In this document: piece after piece, positions 8,394 through 28,562 of the stretch | How positions within the stretch are numbered: the stretch's first letter is position 1 | Layout: each line of letters begins with the position of its first letter | Origin: Candidatus Melainabacteria bacterium | GTDB lineage: Bacteria > Cyanobacteriota > Vampirovibrionia > Obscuribacterales > Obscuribacteraceae | Reading direction: 5' to 3' | DNA: 28,562 bases | NCBI GenBank assembly: GCA_014380105.1 | Contig: JACMKL010000106.1 | Span: forward strand, 1-28,562 | Position numbers and translations under genes: made by a program | Notes under the pieces: generated by a model | The model's input: only the letters and a program-made list of their open reading frames with translations | Database searches by the model: none | Told to the model about the DNA's origin: nothing

Positions 8394-9341
8394 TCAAGCT
8401 CTCGAGAGCAGTTTGCTATTCAAGATTGACTTATAGTCGAACACATCTAGATACTGGAATGTGTAAGCTGCAATCGCTTCTTTTTCTTCTTTGGAAAGCT
8501 CATTAGCTGTGGCAATATTGGCTTCCGGTGTAGCTTTTCGAATTGTGCCCCAGGGATAGATTTCTTCCAATTGAGAGCCATTCCATGTTGGAGTTTTCAG
8601 AGTATCTGATGATTCTAATCCCATTTTTTCGAGTACTTGACCGAGCGCCTTTTTGGAGTCGGACATTACGTCTTCAGCTCTTACAATGTGCATTCTGTCT
8701 GGATATTTTTCCTTAAACATCAAAGCATGATACTGATTGAGGGTCCAACCGAGCATGTAGTGATTCAACGAAAGCGGCACGGGGCGCTTCTTCGTATCAG
8801 CGTATGCGGACCAGGGGTTTCTCACTATGTGCAAAACATGGGAGGTCGGCAGGTCGTTCAAAATCTTATCGGAGTCAACGCCAATGATGGGGCTGTAGCC
8901 CACGTGCACGCATTCTTCGCCCGAGCGTTTGAAGTTTTTCCAAGCCTCAAAAGTTGCTTTGTAAAATGCGGCCATGTTGTTTGCGCGCGAACGCCCAGTT
9001 TTCAAAACATGCTCAACGTAGTGCTTCATGCGATCTTCGTCCGAAAAATCAAATTCCATATGTCTGAATTTGCTGACTTTCGGAGTGAGGGCGCGCACTT
9101 TGCATTCTTCGTCAATAATTGCCTTGTAGTCTTCCTGCGGTGTCGCTTCCAGGGAGAAAACCGGCCATCTGTACTTGACGGGAAACATCGACGAAAGGTG
9201 ATCGTTGACCAGGCGTGTTCCTGGCTGCGATTCAAATGGATAGACAAACAATTGCGGATGGCCGTCTAAAAAACGATGCGTCGTATTGCCACCATTTTCG
9301 TACATGGCACCAAGCATCAGTAAACGGAATTCGCCGCTCAT
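8394..9341 (-). CDS. Sulfotransferase-fold protein with non-canonical PAPS motifs
   Basis: LMLGAMYENGGNTTHRFLDGHPQL..PFE, VLHIVRNPWSAYAD and IVRAEDVMSD.K..L..V...MGL occur in Sulfotransfer_3 order and spacing. ATGA overlap with the upstream gene. Confidence 0.75.
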   Translation of the reverse strand: MSGEFRLLMLGAMYENGGNTTHRFLDGHPQLFVYPFESQPGTRLVNDHLSSMFPVKYRWPVFSLEATPQEDYKAIIDEECKVRALTPKVSKFRHMEFDFSDEDRMKHYVEHVLKTGRSRANNMAAFYKATFEAWKNFKRSGEECVHVGYSPIIGVDSDKILNDLPTSHVLHIVRNPWSAYADTKKRPVPLSLNHYMLGWTLNQYHALMFKEKYPDRMHIVRAEDVMSDSKKALGQVLEKMGLESSDTLKTPTWNGSQLEEIYPWGTIRKATPEANIATANELSKEEKEAIAAYTFQYLDVFDYKSILNSKLLSRA

Positions 9342-10642
9342 TTTTTCTTACCCCTCGTTAATAGACTAGAAGATTTACCAGAATTCGCATCAGTTGTCGA
9401 TTGAAGACGCTTCATACTTGGCTTCCCGGCGCTTAAATCGGTCTCAAATGCGTAGAAGACAAGGTTTTCATTTTTCAAGTCACGTTTCAAAGAGAAGGGC
9501 AATCCGCCGGACATCACAACTGGCATGCTTTCGACCGCAAAAATCTGATTTCCGGACGCCCAGGTGATACTGCCAAGAATACGACCGCTTTTGACATCGA
9601 CCGCATGAACGCCACAGACACTTTTCGACACATCCAGACCAGGAGCATATTGAGAGAAACGCGGAATCACGCGTGAAGTACCAATAAAGGCCACATCACC
9701 AGCAAAACACAAACCGCGCGTCCAGCCCGGCAGTTTCGCAGCGATGCTGCTCTTACCGTCTTTAATCTCACATAACTCGCCATATCCGGAGTTGTCTACA
9801 AACAATCGTTTGCCATAGAAGCGAGCTGAATGCGGTCGTGTCAGTCCTCTAACTATTGGCTCTCTGGTTTTGCCACTGAAAATTACTCCTCGACCGTCAA
9901 CTTGATAATTCGGCTCGCCTGGTCTACTTGTCGAAACAACAGCGGAAGATGCGGAGAAGTACGAATCTGCCAGAGTTTTTCCGGCAGCAATAGAATTCAT
10001 CTGGATATGGTTTTGCTCGAAAATTGGCTTGTGCTTATCTTCAATACATTTTGGCCACCAGACTCTTTCAAAGCCTTTTTCAAAATCTAGAGTAACGATG
10101 GCATTGTGTCCGACAGCATTGCCATGTAGATGACCGTCAATAAGGGCCAGGTCATGCATATAGATGCAGCCAGGCAAATAAAGTGAGCGAGTTACAACTA
10201 AATTCTTTTCGACACTCTCTGGCAGTTCTACATCTAGTCTATTCAATAGACCAGCCACCGGTCGCAATTCGAGCAGCTGATTTGGATTTCTGGTGCTTGC
10301 TACAAAAACCTTCTGATTCTGTACATCAACCGCCACCCCAGATGGATGGGGCAACGGCAAATAAGTGATGGACGGTTTTCCGGCGCTTTGACTCAGAGAA
10401 AGCAGCAAATGCTCGTATTCGCGACTGACTATTAGAGCAATTTTTTGACGTTCTAAAATATCGAAAAATGCGCCTGTCACCTTGTATTTAAGCAAAGTCG
10501 GGTCAGTGGATTCTGCATCTTTCCACATACTAGATACTTGAGCAGCGTCGCGCCACTCAGCGTTATGTCGCGCCCACAGCGCATTGAGTGCTTTACTCTG
10601 CTGATTTTTCTTAGGCTTTATTTTTTTTACAGCCGGTGGCAT
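9338..10642 (-). CDS. TIGR03032 / DUF4915 family beta-propeller protein
   Basis: MHDLAL, QMNSIA, GLTRPHSARF, DNSGYGEL, LPGWTRGL..GDVAFIGTSR, IFAV motifs; no signal peptide seen. Confidence 0.82.
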   Translation of the reverse strand: MPPAVKKIKPKKNQQSKALNALWARHNAEWRDAAQVSSMWKDAESTDPTLLKYKVTGAFFDILERQKIALIVSREYEHLLLSLSQSAGKPSITYLPLPHPSGVAVDVQNQKVFVASTRNPNQLLELRPVAGLLNRLDVELPESVEKNLVVTRSLYLPGCIYMHDLALIDGHLHGNAVGHNAIVTLDFEKGFERVWWPKCIEDKHKPIFEQNHIQMNSIAAGKTLADSYFSASSAVVSTSRPGEPNYQVDGRGVIFSGKTREPIVRGLTRPHSARFYGKRLFVDNSGYGELCEIKDGKSSIAAKLPGWTRGLCFAGDVAFIGTSRVIPRFSQYAPGLDVSKSVCGVHAVDVKSGRILGSITWASGNQIFAVESMPVVMSGGLPFSLKRDLKNENLVFYAFETDLSAGKPSMKRLQSTTDANSGKSSSLLTRGKKK

Positions 10643-11341
10643 TCAGTTTTTTGCCTCGCGCCACAGTTCATAAGCGCCCCAGTACATGCGAAAAGCAGAG
10701 CCATAATTGGTTGTGGATTTACCACCATGCCGTTTTGTTGAAAGGACGGGCACTTCAATAACAGGATAGTTTTCTCTTCGGCAAATCCAGTTAAACTCAG
10801 CATCTATGAGATCATCGTCGCGCGTGAGCTGCATCAGTTTTTCAAATTTTCTTGGAAAAACTTTTGGGGTGCCATTGATGTCCCAGGTTGGCAGGTCAAA
10901 GAAGGCCCTGCATTCCAGGTTATAGATCAGTGAGCCTAGCCGGCGGCGCCAATTATCTCGTATCTTGCGATTTGCTTTAATGACCACTTGTGGAAAAGCG
11001 ACTGCGTATAAAATATGTAAAACAAGATGCTCTGGGCTTGTGCGAGCGGAATTCGTGTAGCAGATCAAGTCACCGGTTGCTTGCTTCAATCCCAGGCGAA
11101 CTGCTAAACCCCAGCCACCCTGGGGGCTGTCGAGCGTTTTTATATAAGAAAACTTTTGCGCCAGAGCCTGACAGACGGAAGGAGAATTATCGCGACAGCC
11201 ATTGGTGACCAAAATTATTTCAAGATTTGATTGAACTTTTTCGAGCGCATTTACGTATTCACTAATAATGGGCTCGATATGATCTGCCTGATTGCACACA
11301 GGCAGAATTATCGAAATCAAATTGTCTCTGCTATTTGCCAC
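10643..11341 (-). CDS. GT2 glycosyltransferase (polyprenyl-phosphate sugar synthase-like)
   Basis: ISIILPVCNQ, EIILVTNGCRDNS, GWGLAVRLG...ATGDLI, DINGTPKVF, YPVIEVPV...RHGGKS. 232 aa with no TM helix; canonical DxD absent. Confidence 0.85.
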   Translation of the reverse strand: MANSRDNLISIILPVCNQADHIEPIISEYVNALEKVQSNLEIILVTNGCRDNSPSVCQALAQKFSYIKTLDSPQGGWGLAVRLGLKQATGDLICYTNSARTSPEHLVLHILYAVAFPQVVIKANRKIRDNWRRRLGSLIYNLECRAFFDLPTWDINGTPKVFPRKFEKLMQLTRDDDLIDAEFNWICRRENYPVIEVPVLSTKRHGGKSTTNYGSAFRMYWGAYELWREAKN

Positions 11342-17551: not shown

Positions 17552-18454
17552 TTGGAGCGGCCAGTGCTGGCAGAATATCTTTTAAAAGAATTGCCTCATA
17601 GTGAAATTCCCGATTCCGGTTTTGACGGAATCAGTGAAACGCTTCTTATTTCAATTCCGAATATCGACACAAAAGAAGGGCTTTGCCTTCTTCATCGCGG
17701 CAAACTATATAGTTTGCACATACCGTCGTGTTCCGGCTTGTGGCTGGAGGGTCAGAAACTTTATGTTTCGCTCTTGTCACCTGATCACATGCGTCTGCGC
17801 ATATATGAACCTGGCAAAACGACGAAAGAATTCTTGAACACATCCATTGGTGATATTCACGACTTGCGCATTTTCGGCGGTGAGCTGTATGCAGTCTCGA
17901 CTTCTACAAATGAAATAGTGACTTTGTCGGAAACAGGCACAATTTTGAAGCGATGGGTATTTCCAGGGATTGGCGATTCTTGGCATATCAATTGCATTGA
18001 TGTCTGGGGTGAAAAAATCGTGGTGTCCGCTTTCGGAAAATTTCCACACTTCCGTGCCTACAAAGGGCGTGTCAAGGAAGCTGGGATAGTGTTCGATATG
18101 GAAAGCCAGGAAATTTTGCAAACACACTTATCGTGCCCACATACACCCAGGTTGGACGAAGTCGGCAGAAAAATGATCTGTGATTCCAGAACCGGACGAT
18201 TGCTATTTTTTGATCAAGACAAAGGCAAAGAAGTGATGTTCGATGGTGCATTCACGAGAGGAATTGCATTCAGCGACAAACATATTTTTGTGGGCTTAAG
18301 CAGCCTGCGCCACAGAGTCGGCATCAAGCCTGGAGCTGGCACACAAGCGAGTGCAGAAATTGGCATTGTGGATTTCAAAACACTGGAATGCTTGAAAAAG
18401 GTAGCAATTCCGCGGCGTGAAATTTATGACGTCACTCTTCTTCCGAATAATTGA
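17552..18454 (+). CDS. Second DUF4915/TIGR03032-like beta-propeller protein
   Basis: DIHDLR, VSTSTNEIVTL, DSWHINCI, LSCPHTPR, DSRTGRL, FTRGIAF..HIFVGLSSLR, EIYDV. TTG start is uncertain; no signal peptide. Confidence 0.75.
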   Translation: MERPVLAEYLLKELPHSEIPDSGFDGISETLLISIPNIDTKEGLCLLHRGKLYSLHIPSCSGLWLEGQKLYVSLLSPDHMRLRIYEPGKTTKEFLNTSIGDIHDLRIFGGELYAVSTSTNEIVTLSETGTILKRWVFPGIGDSWHINCIDVWGEKIVVSAFGKFPHFRAYKGRVKEAGIVFDMESQEILQTHLSCPHTPRLDEVGRKMICDSRTGRLLFFDQDKGKEVMFDGAFTRGIAFSDKHIFVGLSSLRHRVGIKPGAGTQASAEIGIVDFKTLECLKKVAIPRREIYDVTLLPNN

Positions 18455-19850: not shown

Positions 19851-22145
19851 ATGGCAAAACCTTCAACACTAATTGATATTGGCATTATTCTGCTTGTTGT
19901 TGCTCTACTTTTTGGACGCACACTGACCAGTTATTTCCTTGCTGACGATTTTGGCGAGGTGCACTATATACATCGCATCTTCAATGGTCAGCCGGGTCTA
20001 CTCTTAAGCAACTTCACCGGCAACTACATGCAAATTCCGGGTATGAGCGTGTATCGACCGTTCCTGCTTCTTTCGCTTCTGTTCGATTACATAATTTGGA
20101 AAGGTAGTGCTTTTGGCTATTATGCCTCCAACATCTTTTATTACGCAGGCGACTGCATCCTACTTTACTTTATCGTCAAACGGCTGGCACCGTCACCCGA
20201 AAGTCTCGCAAATCGCCTCACCGCATTCTTCTCCTCACTCTTTTTTGCTCTCAGCGCTCTTCACTGTGAAAGCGTCTCATGGGTTGTGGGACGGGTGGAT
20301 ACGGCATGCGGATTTTTCTATCTGTTATCGATTTTATGCATTTTAAAATCACTGACAGGCGACCGAAAGACTCTCACCATCTCAGCAATTGCTCTGTTTA
20401 TTTCAGCGCTTTTTATCAAAGAGATGGCCATCGGAATCCCTGTAGTCGCCTTTTTAATCGGGCTCTTCTATCTAAAAGAAGACGGAAACAATTTCGACCT
20501 GAAGCGGAAATTCAAAGGTGCTTTCACTTTCTCGCTGCCTTATTTGGCAGCGACTTGCGTGTACTTCTTGCTTCGCTACCTCACGCTCGGCACACTAGTG
20601 GGCGGCTATGTAGCGGGCTTTGGTGCCAGCCAGGAACAAAATCTCCTGGCACGCTGGCTTGACGTAGACACAATGCGCAGAATTGCATATCCACTCGTAA
20701 ACGGACATTTCGCTGGTGCTGCGCAAATAGCAAATGTTCTGACAATTTTCTATGTGGCGACAACCACCCTGTTTGCAGTGCGCCTCTTCAGTGGGCAAAT
20801 ACCATTTCGTTTCACTGCCTTCTTGATTGGCTGGTCGTTAACCACGCTTGTGCCCATTTACAAACTCTGGGGGCTTGGCTATCACCTGGAAGGCGCACGC
20901 TTCCTGTTCTTTTTCACGATGCCACTTTCCTGCATTTTGGCAAGTATGCTATTCCAATCAAAAGAGAAAGAAATAAAGTCAACATATTATTCTGGACCGC
21001 GGCTGGTGGCATGGGTAGTGGCAATCCTTTTTGCTGGAATCTCCGCATATATTTGCCAGAAGACAAATCTGATCTGGATACATGCAGGCAAACAGGTGAA
21101 GGCCGTCAACGCACAGTCTATCAAGATATTGAATGAACAAGCCAATAATCAGACAGTATTTCTAGGCATTCCGAAAGAGTCAGAAGGCACACATATGCTC
21201 CTGAATGGTGACACTTTTCGCACGATGTTGAATCCGCCTTTCAACAATAAAGAAGTGAAATCTACGTTCTCAACCTTTGAGCCAATTATGTACTCGCCGA
21301 CTCCGGAAATAGACACCAACCGGCTTCAGAAGCTGGTGTCCAATGGTGCTTCCTTCTATGTGTGGTCCGACGCAACTCACTTTGTCCCCGTTAAATTTAT
21401 AAGCGCCCAATCATCATCCTCCCCTTCTTCAAAGCAATTCGAGCCTGAAGAATTACAGAGGCAGGGTAGTGAAATCACTATCAACAATCAGTCTATTAAT
21501 CCATTAACAACTGACTTTCTGACAATCAATCTGGAAGCGCAGGAGCCAGCAGATGGGGCTTACGTGGGCGTTTCGTGGGGTAGTCCGAATTTCCCACTCA
21601 AAAAGGACATGACTGCCGAACCAATGCTCAAGGTAAAACTAAAGTCCGACAAGACTAACTCGCAAAAACTTATCCATATTCCACTGTCGAGAGACTGGAG
21701 ATGGTTTCGTGATGGAGAAGTAAACAATTTCAATATCGTTCTGCCTGCCGCACAAAAGCTAAAACTACACTCTGTTGAAATTTCCGACCAGGCGAAAATC
21801 TCTCCTACAATCGATTTGACGCAGCTGACTTGCTCTGAGAATGGGGTCTATCCACTGAAGGCTACCGAAACCAATCTTGCCGCCGACGCCGGGCAAATTC
21901 CGGGCGCTACGGGTCTGTTGATTGAAATAACAAAACCGAATTTCTTCTTTGAGAATTTCCGCGAATCAAACGGTGAAGACGCAGTCGGATCGCGCTTTCC
22001 GGTCAAAAACACGAAGACCGATTTTCGCCTGAAACGCATTCTATTTAGAGGCAAAGGATATTATCAGGTGCGCGTTCGGGCTGTAAACGACAGGGGTGAA
22101 ACAGTCGGCGAACCGTCATGTCGCCTCAGTCTTCAGGTCGAGTGA
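19851..22145 (+). CDS. GT-C membrane glycosyltransferase (TMTC-like core) with large periplasmic C-terminal region
   Basis: YFLADDF, YRPF..LSLLFDY, LHCESVSWVVGRVD, LFIKEMAI, WGLGYHLEGARF; ends in YYQVRVRAVNDRG (FN3-like strand). Confidence 0.78.
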   Translation: MAKPSTLIDIGIILLVVALLFGRTLTSYFLADDFGEVHYIHRIFNGQPGLLLSNFTGNYMQIPGMSVYRPFLLLSLLFDYIIWKGSAFGYYASNIFYYAGDCILLYFIVKRLAPSPESLANRLTAFFSSLFFALSALHCESVSWVVGRVDTACGFFYLLSILCILKSLTGDRKTLTISAIALFISALFIKEMAIGIPVVAFLIGLFYLKEDGNNFDLKRKFKGAFTFSLPYLAATCVYFLLRYLTLGTLVGGYVAGFGASQEQNLLARWLDVDTMRRIAYPLVNGHFAGAAQIANVLTIFYVATTTLFAVRLFSGQIPFRFTAFLIGWSLTTLVPIYKLWGLGYHLEGARFLFFFTMPLSCILASMLFQSKEKEIKSTYYSGPRLVAWVVAILFAGISAYICQKTNLIWIHAGKQVKAVNAQSIKILNEQANNQTVFLGIPKESEGTHMLLNGDTFRTMLNPPFNNKEVKSTFSTFEPIMYSPTPEIDTNRLQKLVSNGASFYVWSDATHFVPVKFISAQSSSSPSSKQFEPEELQRQGSEITINNQSINPLTTDFLTINLEAQEPADGAYVGVSWGSPNFPLKKDMTAEPMLKVKLKSDKTNSQKLIHIPLSRDWRWFRDGEVNNFNIVLPAAQKLKLHSVEISDQAKISPTIDLTQLTCSENGVYPLKATETNLAADAGQIPGATGLLIEITKPNFFFENFRESNGEDAVGSRFPVKNTKTDFRLKRILFRGKGYYQVRVRAVNDRGETVGEPSCRLSLQVE

Positions 22146-26280: not shown

Positions 26281-28560
26281 CTAGTGAAGGGAAGTGCGAA
26301 AAGCAAGGGGATTGAAATCGAGCGTGCTAATTTCAAGTTTCAGATCCTTTATTTCGAGCCTACTGCCGCTCTTCTCCGGAAAGAATGAAACATTGATAGT
26401 GTTAATGTCGCCACCAATCAAAGATGGCATTAGAGGAAAGCTGTAATCGAAAGTGGTCATCTCTCTATTAGAAGGCAGGGTGCGCGGCAGCCAGCGCACT
26501 GGATAGGGCAGGTTTCGACCATTTTTCTTACCCACATAAAGAACTACTACAGGCTGAACCTTTGTGGGTTTCTCCGAAGCAGATGTGCCATGCAATCGCA
26601 TAATTGCCATCTCATTATGGAAGTTCTTCAAATTTACATGCATCGAAAAATCACGACGCATTCCAGGCTCAACGAAATATTGCTGCTGTGGCAAATCATC
26701 GATAGACACTATCGGTTTAGCGGCCTGCCCCTCAGCCAGAGGAGCCGTGAGTAGCAATATGGAATAGGCACCCGAGTGATATTTCGGCTCACGAATAGAT
26801 ACAGAAGACTCTGAGTGATTACTCATATTGATTCTGAAATCGTATCGCGGGCAGGTCAATTCTTTGTCGCTTTCTACTCCGTAAAATGCCTTCTCCCACG
26901 ATGAAGAATCGACAGAAGGCAATATGGCAGTGCCGTTTTTATTGACATGAGCGCCAAAAATTCTGATTGGAAGTTTGCCATCTTTGTTTTCAATTTCAAT
27001 ATCAAAGCGTCCAGCTGTTTTTGCAGTATTCACTACATCCGGTGGCACGCGCAGCCAGTACCACTGTCTTAAATCGAGATTGCTCAAATCAGCAGAAACG
27101 GTCATACAATCGTAGATCCATTCGCACTCATAATAGAGTTCGCTCTTGCCGTTTTGCTTGATAGCGGAGAAATCCTGAGTAAGTGAGATGCCGGGAATTA
27201 GCGCATTCTCGATTTGTTTACCATTGACTGTAATTCGTCCGCTCTGGCTCAGCGCCCGAGATCCGGCCGTATCTACCAGGATATAGGCAGCTTGATGGGT
27301 AAGCTTTTCTCGTTCGCCTGCCGATAATTTTATTGTCTGCGAAATTTTGTCGTTAGCATTTTTAAGCGTAGTCACCCACTCACCAATTCTCCCGTTAGCG
27401 CGGACAGGCAGGGAGGCAAGTAAAACAGTGACTACGGCACATGCGGCAAAACTTCGCCGTGGCAAGCGCCCAGCCATTTTGCTCAATCCGGATAATTCAT
27501 ACAGGTAGGCGAAAAATACTATGCCAAAAGCAATTTTTGCAATGCTCAAATAAGCCGCAGCCAGCAAAACATTGCCACCACTCAAAATTAAAATTCCGCC
27601 TGGTTCTGCGACTCTCGCCACCAGGAAAAAGGCAATTGCTGACAAAACCACCTTTATATATGCCGGATAATTTCTGTAAGCGAGTCCGAAAACTGCAGAT
27701 GCTCCAGCTGCTGCAAACAAAATCAGAGCAGGGGTTTCCGTCAAGTTGTATCTCGGGACTGTAATGAATAGCCAATACAAACAGTGCGCCAAAAAATACA
27801 GGAAGACAAAATATCTAGCATGCTGAACGCCACTATCTTGAGGCGTCCCTATTTTGCGTTTGACTAAAGTGAGACAAATTCCGCAGGCAAACAAGCACAG
27901 TAGCACTTGATGGTAGAGAACCTGACTCCAAAACGAAAACGGTCCAATTGATGTCCGGAAATCATTCCAGGGAAATTTCAGAAGGCGTTGAGGCTTATCC
28001 GTCATCAGCTTGAAAAAACGTTCCGGGCTTCTTTTGAAATTCTCCGAGAGGACTTTCAGTGCAGGTTTTGACTCTACGCCCCGACCGTCTGGATAGGGAT
28101 ACGACAGCCATCCACTGATATCACTATTGGTGCCCACAAATAAATTGTAATTTCCAACTCGATCAACGACCAGGCTGGACTTTCCAAAAATTACTCTCTG
28201 CGCCATCAGCCAGGGCAGGACGATACAGCACATTCCTAGCAACAGGACAAATACTTTTGCTTTTGGACTACGATTGCGCTCATGGAAGAAGGTCAGTGGT
28301 AAAGCAGCAATTGAAAGTATCACCATCACAGATCGGCTCATCTGCAAAATAGCCAGGGCAGCCCCCAAGAACAAGATATGCAGCCGTCTTCGATTACCAC
28401 CAGTAAAGCCGATACACAAACTAAAAATGATAAAACAACAAATCGAAGTAGCAAAACTTTCAGTGTAGAGCCGTCCCGAATTAACGATATAAGCGGGATA
28501 AAATGCGGAAAGAAAACCTGCAAAAATCCCCGCACGAGCGCTCCAGACTCGCGCGCCGGT
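26281..28560 (-). CDS. PMT_2/ArnT-like GT-C glycosyltransferase with large periplasmic domain; 5' end beyond the window
   Basis: I extended the frame upstream of 28419 by hand and it stays open to the edge: TGARVWSARAGIFAGFLSAFYPAYIVNSGRLYTESFATS, a typical GT-C loop. Also PWLMAQR, GNYNLFVG, VPRYNL. Confidence 0.8.
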   Translation of the reverse strand, partial: TGARVWSARAGIFAGFLSAFYPAYIVNSGRLYTESFATSICCFIIFSLCIGFTGGNRRRLHILFLGAALAILQMSRSVMVILSIAALPLTFFHERNRSPKAKVFVLLLGMCCIVLPWLMAQRVIFGKSSLVVDRVGNYNLFVGTNSDISGWLSYPYPDGRGVESKPALKVLSENFKRSPERFFKLMTDKPQRLLKFPWNDFRTSIGPFSFWSQVLYHQVLLCLFACGICLTLVKRKIGTPQDSGVQHARYFVFLYFLAHCLYWLFITVPRYNLTETPALILFAAAGASAVFGLAYRNYPAYIKVVLSAIAFFLVARVAEPGGILILSGGNVLLAAAYLSIAKIAFGIVFFAYLYELSGLSKMAGRLPRRSFAACAVVTVLLASLPVRANGRIGEWVTTLKNANDKISQTIKLSAGEREKLTHQAAYILVDTAGSRALSQSGRITVNGKQIENALIPGISLTQDFSAIKQNGKSELYYECEWIYDCMTVSADLSNLDLRQWYWLRVPPDVVNTAKTAGRFDIEIENKDGKLPIRIFGAHVNKNGTAILPSVDSSSWEKAFYGVESDKELTCPRYDFRINMSNHSESSVSIREPKYHSGAYSILLLTAPLAEGQAAKPIVSIDDLPQQQYFVEPGMRRDFSMHVNLKNFHNEMAIMRLHGTSASEKPTKVQPVVVLYVGKKNGRNLPYPVRWLPRTLPSNREMTTFDYSFPLMPSLIGGDINTINVSFFPEKSGSRLEIKDLKLEISTLDFNPLAFRTSLH

Positions 28561-28562
28561 CA

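Follow-up and report, generated by a model that had tools for sequence, protein, structure and literature searches.

Introduction

Arylsulfate sulfotransferases (ASSTs) carry three conserved histidines at the centre of a propeller fold. One of these (His436; His350 in the enzyme from D. hafniense) carries the sulfuryl group transiently, and the sulfate is coordinated by Asn358 and Arg374. Cpz4 transfers sulfate to a hydroxyl group of a sugar (PMC13426309), and Cpz8 and Cpz4 carry out a two-step sulfate relay involving an enzyme dependent on 3'-phosphoadenosine 5'-phosphosulfate (PAPS) and an ASST (PMC4257720). Here we describe a gene of the DUF4915 (PF16261) family in a 28,562-nucleotide stretch of DNA from a Candidatus Melainabacteria bacterium (contig JACMKL010000106.1, positions 1 to 28,562; hereafter the window), whose product had been compared by eye with PAPS-independent ASSTs in an initial annotation made from the sequence. 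DUF4915 and TIGR03032 constitute a large family whose genes, in many phyla, lie in envelope glycan loci in close association with those of glycosyltransferases and of sulfotransferase-fold proteins, and a literature search on DUF4915, TIGR03032, PF16261 and IPR017481 found no paper mentioning any of them.

We find that the window protein is a six-bladed propeller with an exceptionally conserved set of polar residues, encoded between a glycosyltransferase gene and a sulfotransferase-fold gene. It almost certainly functions as an enzyme or as a subunit that binds a small ligand, with a pocket of His, Arg, Asn and Ser side chains on one propeller face. None of the tests run assigns it to the ASST family, and we consider it doubtful that it works like one.

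A six-bladed propeller with an invariant polar face

The motifs listed in the initial annotation, MHD, HIQMNSI, PHSARF and LFVDN, occur in that order in the translated open reading frame (ORF), at residues 162-164, 212-218, 270-275 and 280-284 of 434. Nucleotides 9792-10160 correspond to residues 162-284, and the reverse complement of 10151-10159, ATGCATGAC, encodes M-H-D. The ORF product matches PF16261 with an E-value of 4.6e-54 and a score of 184.2 bits against a cut-off of 35, over model positions 3-310 of 316. The TIGR03032 label originally attached to it fits less closely, scoring 128.4 bits, under the curated cut-off of 251.5, and by these profile matches the window protein is best described as a separate clade of the same superfamily.

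An AlphaFold model computed with a 64-sequence family alignment reached a predicted local distance difference test score (pLDDT) of 88.7 and a predicted template modelling score of 0.86; a single-sequence run (pLDDT 34) was unusable. Consistent with the propeller that had been predicted, N-terminal helices (residues 1-58) lead into six four-stranded blades (approximately residues 54-378), and the protein ends in a low-confidence Lys/Ser-rich tail (approximately residues 403-434). The inner strands start at residues 100, 162, 215, 270, 307 and 367. At their N-termini the model places H99, H163, Q214/N216, H271 (with S272 and R274), R309 and Q366, and in the B-C loops it places R118, N175, S232 and N284-S285-G286, as read from its secondary-structure string rather than its coordinates. 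We infer that the two sets would share one propeller face, around the tunnel mouth. The tail (9338-9435, minus strand) is common only to the closest orthologues, those from Obscuribacterales, and may contact a membrane or a partner.

Orthologues were found by a pattern scan of one genome per species at an identity of at least 50%, which gave 341 species genomes. Their hosts include Melainabacteria/Obscuribacterales (the closest), Cyanobacteria, Chloroflexota, Acidobacteriota, Planctomycetota, Verrucomicrobiota, Deltaproteobacteria and Nitrospinota. We scored residue conservation in 76 orthologues from more than 12 phyla and, family-wide, in 36 diverse DUF4915 representatives. Nineteen polar residues are invariant in all 76 orthologues: E77, H78, H99, R118, H163, D164, N211, Q214, N216, S217, S232, H271, S272, R274, N284, S285, G286, R309 and Q366. 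The motifs are features of the family rather than chance strings.

Across the 36 representatives, H163 is retained in 31, N216 in 30, H271 in 32, R274 in 29 and R309, the most conserved Arg of the family, in 34. The family-wide core comprises H163, N216, H271, S272, R274, S285/G286 and T-R309-G. Position 214 is Gln in 24 representatives and His in seven, among them the canonical TIGR03032 clade and a second DUF4915 gene of the window. H99, though invariant among orthologues, is Arg or Lys in the canonical clade; position 284 is Asn, Asp or Glu; and H78, H99 and E77 are not conserved across the representatives. A canonical member alone matches more than 7,000 clusters at 90% identity. The second DUF4915 gene of the window (17552-18454, plus strand) is the first gene of a GT4 operon within the same locus, and another divergent DUF4915 copy lies on a further contig of the same genome (C803:1992-2588), also with His at the 163, 214 and 271 positions.

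A coupled operon in glycan loci

The DUF4915 gene is translationally coupled on both sides (Table 1). The linkage to a sulfotransferase-fold gene remarked on initially extends well beyond the window: in about 76 of 80 loci, GT2 glycosyltransferase, DUF4915 and sulfotransferase-like genes stand side by side as a triad. Conservation within the triad is highest for the sulfotransferase-like protein, at 63-84% identity across phyla compared to 50-69% for the propeller. In place of the PRxGST of PAPS-type enzymes, its N-terminal loop has YENGGNTT, and it also carries RNPWSAYAD. Elsewhere the same domains are joined in single proteins, as GT2-DUF4915, Sulfotransfer_3-DUF4915, DUF4915-TPR-GT9-GT2 and a fusion of an Asp/Asn-hydroxylase, a PAPS-type sulfotransferase and DUF4915. 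The sulfotransferase of one fused protein, P0263, retains the PAPS motifs PRAGST and RDP...S.

A split transketolase and a short-chain dehydrogenase/reductase (SDR) flank the triad in about 55 of these 80 loci, giving a six-gene cassette, which is the arrangement in most phyla other than that of the window. In the lineage of the window the split transketolase (N and C parts) and the SDR form a separate three-gene operon, on another contig of the genome (C504:1915-4578). The glycan locus holds several GT-C enzymes and a Wzm/Wzt-type exporter. Genes for PAPS synthesis, namely cysD and a fused cysN-cysC (L101:6611-9301), are found within the same glycan locus, at a distance of 20 kb from the triad, in a relative whose orthologue is 63% identical. 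A chain of short contigs in the window's own genome (C267 - C234 - C11 - C229) reproduces the order seen in the relative and places cysD-cysNC just past position 28562.

Similarity to arylsulfate sulfotransferases and its limits

For comparison we used E. coli AssT, 18 relatives and seven diverse cyanobacterial PF05935 proteins, all of which share H252, H356, N358, R374, H436 and N451 (numbered as in mature E. coli AssT). As read from these sequences, each ASST histidine opens an inner strand, on three consecutive blades, and in our model H163, Q214/N216 and H271 likewise open the inner strands of consecutive blades 3, 4 and 5. At the level of the pattern, five of the six ASST invariants (H252, H356-x-N358, H436 and N451) have counterparts in the same order, the middle His being replaced by Gln214; N216 and N284 align by motif with N358 and N451, the sulfate-binding asparagines of ASSTs. 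The proposed ASST-like central histidines are therefore only partly recovered: H163 and H271 are invariant and, in the model, begin inner strands, and the middle position is Gln214, leaving two of the three histidines. The H of HIQMNSI had been equated with the ASST HxN histidine, an assignment that we correct, as this residue (H212) is in the wrong register, is kept in just 58 of the 76 orthologues and gives way to Q214 as the equivalent.

Alignment of family profiles with ASST profiles by hhalign repeatedly selected these positions. The 64-sequence alignment (P approximately 0.09-0.12) paired only N-x-x-Q-x-N-S-I with N-W-A-H-V-N-S-I. The best result came from the canonical, His214-bearing clade, with P 0.014 over 133 collinear columns that pair H214/N216 with H356/N358 and H271/284 with H436/N451; a larger canonical alignment (P 0.037) aligned the H271 blade alone. 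With a broader ASST profile the best local match shifted to blade 2, setting H99...R118 against H356...R374, a register in which R118 is a possible counterpart of Arg374. We discarded a near-global greedy run (mact 0.01), which returned a long, meaningless alignment without co-aligning the three motifs. The repeated choice of the same catalytic motifs across runs, none of them significant, is suggestive. Among 2775 ORFs of the genome the shared-residue pattern, which was chosen after the fact, occurs in this ORF and one unrelated enolase-type ORF, and it was absent from shuffles.

Structure searches with Foldseek and VIA-align placed YWTD propellers first (nidogen, LRP4/6; Z 24.3-22), with NHL propellers (SOQ1, NHLRC2, TRIM71) at Z 21-19.6. 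Among the enzyme folds matched, gluconolactonases reach Z 21 and the Zn lyase PAL Z 19.8; all of these, and strictosidine synthase, rank above any ASST. ASST-type Cpz4 (9kf6_A) appeared at rank 35 of a wide VIA search, with Z 18.8 and a root-mean-square deviation of 3.3 Å over 268 residues (model residues 41-386), the longest alignment in that list. The SEQRES numbering of its HINS His (212) and QH His (267) fits, as a rough check, a blade-for-blade register with Q214 and H271. ESM Atlas yielded unnamed clusters only, plus one cluster that is 20% NHL. On this model the fold agrees with that of an ASST without being specific to that family.

A body of results weighs against an ASST-like mechanism. 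Gln214 replaces the middle ASST His, which has been proposed as the general base, in the window protein and in all 76 orthologues, and Arg374, which ends strand B of the HxN blade in ASSTs, aligns with Ser (S232/S233) and so lacks an aligned counterpart; invariant R118, R274 and R309 might be its spatial stand-ins. Therefore the mechanism, if related to that of ASSTs, would be a modified one. At E-values up to 10, none of 64 family members match the Arylsulfotrans Pfam model (10 match the Pfam NHL model, weakly), and phmmer and family-profile searches of the PDB return no ASST chain though 3elq and 9kf6 are present. In sequence, NHL repeats come nearest (E 1e-9 to 1e-4): the family profile finds PknD/Pizza at E 1e-9 to 5e-7 and also TRIM71 and SOQ1 (to 6e-4), mostly through blade 2, the most NHL-like blade of the protein. 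The hhalign scores against ASSTs (probability 0.5-3.2%, P 0.014-0.12) are not significant, and the alternative register H99...R118 scores equally well, so the blade motifs are partly generic. No ASST is found in the top 50 of Foldseek against the PDB or of a second VIA search, and YWTD, NHL and lactonase propellers (Z 24-20) are closer in fold than Cpz4.

Gene context adds to these points. A strong match to adenosine 5'-phosphosulfate (APS) kinase is missing from 11 of 32 cassette genomes, which are metagenome-assembled and of unknown completeness. Many DUF4915 genes neighbour glycosyltransferases only, and in a cyanobacterial sample Sulfotransfer_3 lies, among the matches listed, within 10 kb of DUF4915 in three of the 16 genomes that have both families. 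The cassette contains no aryl-sulfate donor pathway. Together, the resemblance seen by eye persists in the order of residues, in N216 and N284 and in the match to Cpz4, and is not borne out by profile statistics, an Arg374 counterpart or a specific fold match; homology to ASSTs is not demonstrable statistically from the sequences.

Proposed function and alternatives

We propose that the ORF product is a cytoplasmic six-bladed propeller enzyme of a distinct, very conserved DUF4915 clade, acting as the middle member of the GT2 - DUF4915 - sulfotransferase-fold operon. That operon would be one half of a six-gene sugar-tailoring cassette whose transketolase/SDR half, here on another contig, would make the sugar on which the propeller works together with the GT2 and the sulfotransferase-fold protein. 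The predicted pocket comprises H78, H99, R118, H163, Q214, N216, H271-S272-x-R274, N284-S285-G286, R309 and Q366 on one face of the central tunnel and appears to have no obvious acidic metal-ligand set. This composition favours sulfate or phosphate ester chemistry, and the predicted substrate is an anionic ester (sulfate or phosphate) carried by the sugar or lipid-linked sugar of the cassette. The likeliest chemistry would be group transfer through a covalent His271 intermediate, with H163 as acid/base and N216, N284, R274 and R309 holding the oxyanion in an ASST-like manner. The fold, the conservation, the operon and the fusions are established here; the pocket geometry, the anionic nature of the substrate and the covalent His are predictions. 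The proposal taken whole, as an anionic ester enzyme with a His/Arg/Asn/Ser pocket and a covalent His271, is the one we put forward, tentatively and at somewhat less than an even chance of being right.

A serious rival, rather unlikely in our estimate, is that the protein is a hydrolase, lyase, lactonase or isomerase of the NHL/SGL propeller type, which would use His acid/base pairs and no covalent intermediate, possibly with a metal at H78/H99/H163/H271, on the transketolase/SDR-derived sugar. NHL repeats are its nearest relatives in sequence, including weak Pfam matches, and its top enzyme folds are those of gluconolactonases, PAL and strictosidine synthase; in the window clade, four invariant His and E77 lie on the predicted active face. 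However, H78, H99 and E77 are not kept across the family, and the core that is kept (two His, Asn, two Arg, two Ser) is without acidic ligands of the kind usual in Ca/Zn propeller enzymes. This explanation also leaves the sulfotransferase-domain fusions unaccounted for.

A narrower version of our proposal, and a subset of it, is a PAPS-independent, ASST-like ping-pong sulfotransferase, in which sulfate would pass from a small sulfated carrier or the neighbouring sulfotransferase-fold protein to His271 and on to a glycan. The motif order, the P 0.014 alignment and the Cpz4 match point this way, as do the sulfotransferase-fold partner in a fixed triad and in fusions, the altered PAPS loop of that partner and cysD-cysNC in the locus. 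Cpz8/Cpz4 offers, by analogy, a precedent for a PAPS-type enzyme paired with a propeller transferase. Against it stand Gln214 in place of the general-base His, the missing Arg374 equivalent and a profile similarity that is not significant; no phenolic-carrier gene is present, roughly one in three cassette genomes is without a strong APS-kinase match, and the family is widespread also without sulfotransferase neighbours. We regard this version as unlikely.

The other serious rival, a non-catalytic propeller that binds acceptors or scaffolds, presenting a glycan, lipid-linked sugar or protein to tailoring enzymes (GT2, GT9, GT41, sulfotransferase, hydroxylase), would suit a domain fused or adjacent to many different catalytic partners whose best structure matches are ligand-binding YWTD and NHL propellers, but we find it improbable, as a face whose polar His, Arg, Asn and Ser side chains are 100% invariant in more than 12 phyla, in proteins of 50-69% identity, points to a site for catalysis or for a small ligand more readily than to an adaptor surface.

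Taken furthest, our proposal of covalent His271 chemistry would make DUF4915 a new class of His-dependent sulfuryl (or phosphoryl) transferase, independently evolved or very distantly related to ASSTs, which would form with its sulfotransferase-fold partner and the GT2 a relay decorating a lipid-linked sugar; we give this extension a low probability. If true, it would provide a function for thousands of uncharacterised bacterial proteins of the DUF4915 family, add a second lineage of propellers that transfer sulfuryl or phosphoryl groups and account for the way in which a look-alike of sulfotransferases, its PAPS sites altered, can contribute to glycan tailoring. The hypothesis is stated at the level of residues, with H271 as candidate covalent carrier, H163 as its putative helper and N216/N284/R274/R309 as a possible oxyanion cradle. 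Should it be wrong, the same residues would still mark the active face of an uncharacterised enzyme.

Features of the locus

Table 1. Genes and motifs discussed in the text, by position in the window.
Feature	Residues	Position	Strand	Description	Basis
DUF4915 (PF16261) protein	434 aa	9338..10642	(-)	Middle gene of the triad	ORF translation, Pfam match, AlphaFold model
PHPSG	98-102	10337..10351	(-)	H99 just before blade 2 inner strand	Model and alignments
TRNPN	117-121	10280..10294	(-)	Blade 2 B-C loop; R118 invariant in orthologues	Alignments
MHD	162-164	10151..10159	(-)	H163 opens blade 3 inner strand; candidate equivalent of ASST H252	
NHIQMNSI	211-218	9989..10012	(-)	Start of blade 4 inner strand; Q214-x-N216 resembles ASST H356-x-N358	
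PHSAR	270-274	9821..9835	(-)	Start of blade 5 inner strand; H271 candidate equivalent of sulfurylated ASST H436	
DNSG	283-286	9785..9796	(-)	End of blade 5 strand B and B-C loop; N284 resembles ASST N451	
WTRG	307-310	9713..9724	(-)	Start of blade 6 inner strand	Model and family alignment
GT2 glycosyltransferase (ArnC/DPM1-like)		10643..11341	(-)	First triad gene; stop codon abuts DUF4915 start	
Sulfotransferase-fold protein		8394..9341	(-)	Sulfotransfer_3, 31 bits; start overlaps DUF4915 stop by 4 nt	
Second, divergent DUF4915 paralogue	300 aa	17552..18454	(+)	His at H163/H214/H271 equivalents; upstream of GT4 gene	

Two large ORFs of the window, at 26281-28560 (minus strand) and 19851-22145 (plus strand), match no Pfam family. 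The first, whose counterpart in a relative is a polytopic membrane protein of 913 aa, probably encodes a further GT-C-like enzyme. Two ORFs of a relative near cysNC, of 592 and 913 aa and with no Pfam match, were considered as candidates and set aside, both being polytopic membrane proteins and neither propellers nor ASSTs. The cysD/cysN-cysC locus also carries MBOAT, GT2 and GT-C-like membrane proteins. Separately, cyanobacterial genomes (loci L090-L099) contain a short ASST-type family of about 376 aa that consists of the propeller only, with no N-terminal sandwich domain, and has the full H / HxN / R / QH / DN set.

Comparison with known systems

The ASSTs (PF05935/PF14269), represented by E. 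coli AssT (3ELQ/3ETS/3ETT), Streptomyces Cpz4 (9KF6) and the D. hafniense enzyme, are six-bladed propellers like the DUF4915 protein, and both have the order H...[H/Q]xN[S]...H[ST]A...DN at inner-strand starts of three consecutive blades. Like Cpz4, the DUF4915 protein appears to be cytoplasmic and directed at a glycan, with a sulfotransferase-fold partner. Unlike the ASSTs, its clade has Gln for the middle His and additional invariant residues (H78, H99, R118, R274, R309), and it has no N-terminal beta-sandwich domain, no signal peptide and no evident aryl-sulfate donor.

The NHL and YWTD propellers (the PknD sensor/Pizza, TRIM71, SOQ1, the LDL-receptor family and PAL, 3FW0) supply the best sequence matches and the best folds (Z 24.3-19.8). 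The majority serve as binding modules and lack the invariant His/Asn/Arg set of DUF4915, and the three Zn-binding His of NHL-type PAL are placed differently from the histidines of DUF4915. SGL/SMP-30 gluconolactonases, PON1 and strictosidine synthase are likewise six-bladed (Z 21-19) and build their active site from the first inner-strand residues at the tunnel mouth, as DUF4915 is predicted to do. These enzymes hold Ca or Zn by Glu, Asn and Asp, whereas DUF4915 offers a His/Arg/Asn/Ser set.

Canonical TIGR03032/DUF4915 proteins belong to the same Pfam family as the window protein and have the same core of H163, N216, H271-S-x-R and T-R-G; they occur fused to GT2, to TPR-GT9 and to PAPS-type sulfotransferases. 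The window protein differs from them in its N-terminal helical extension, in Q214 rather than His, in H99 rather than Arg or Lys, and in its place within a fixed triad cassette.

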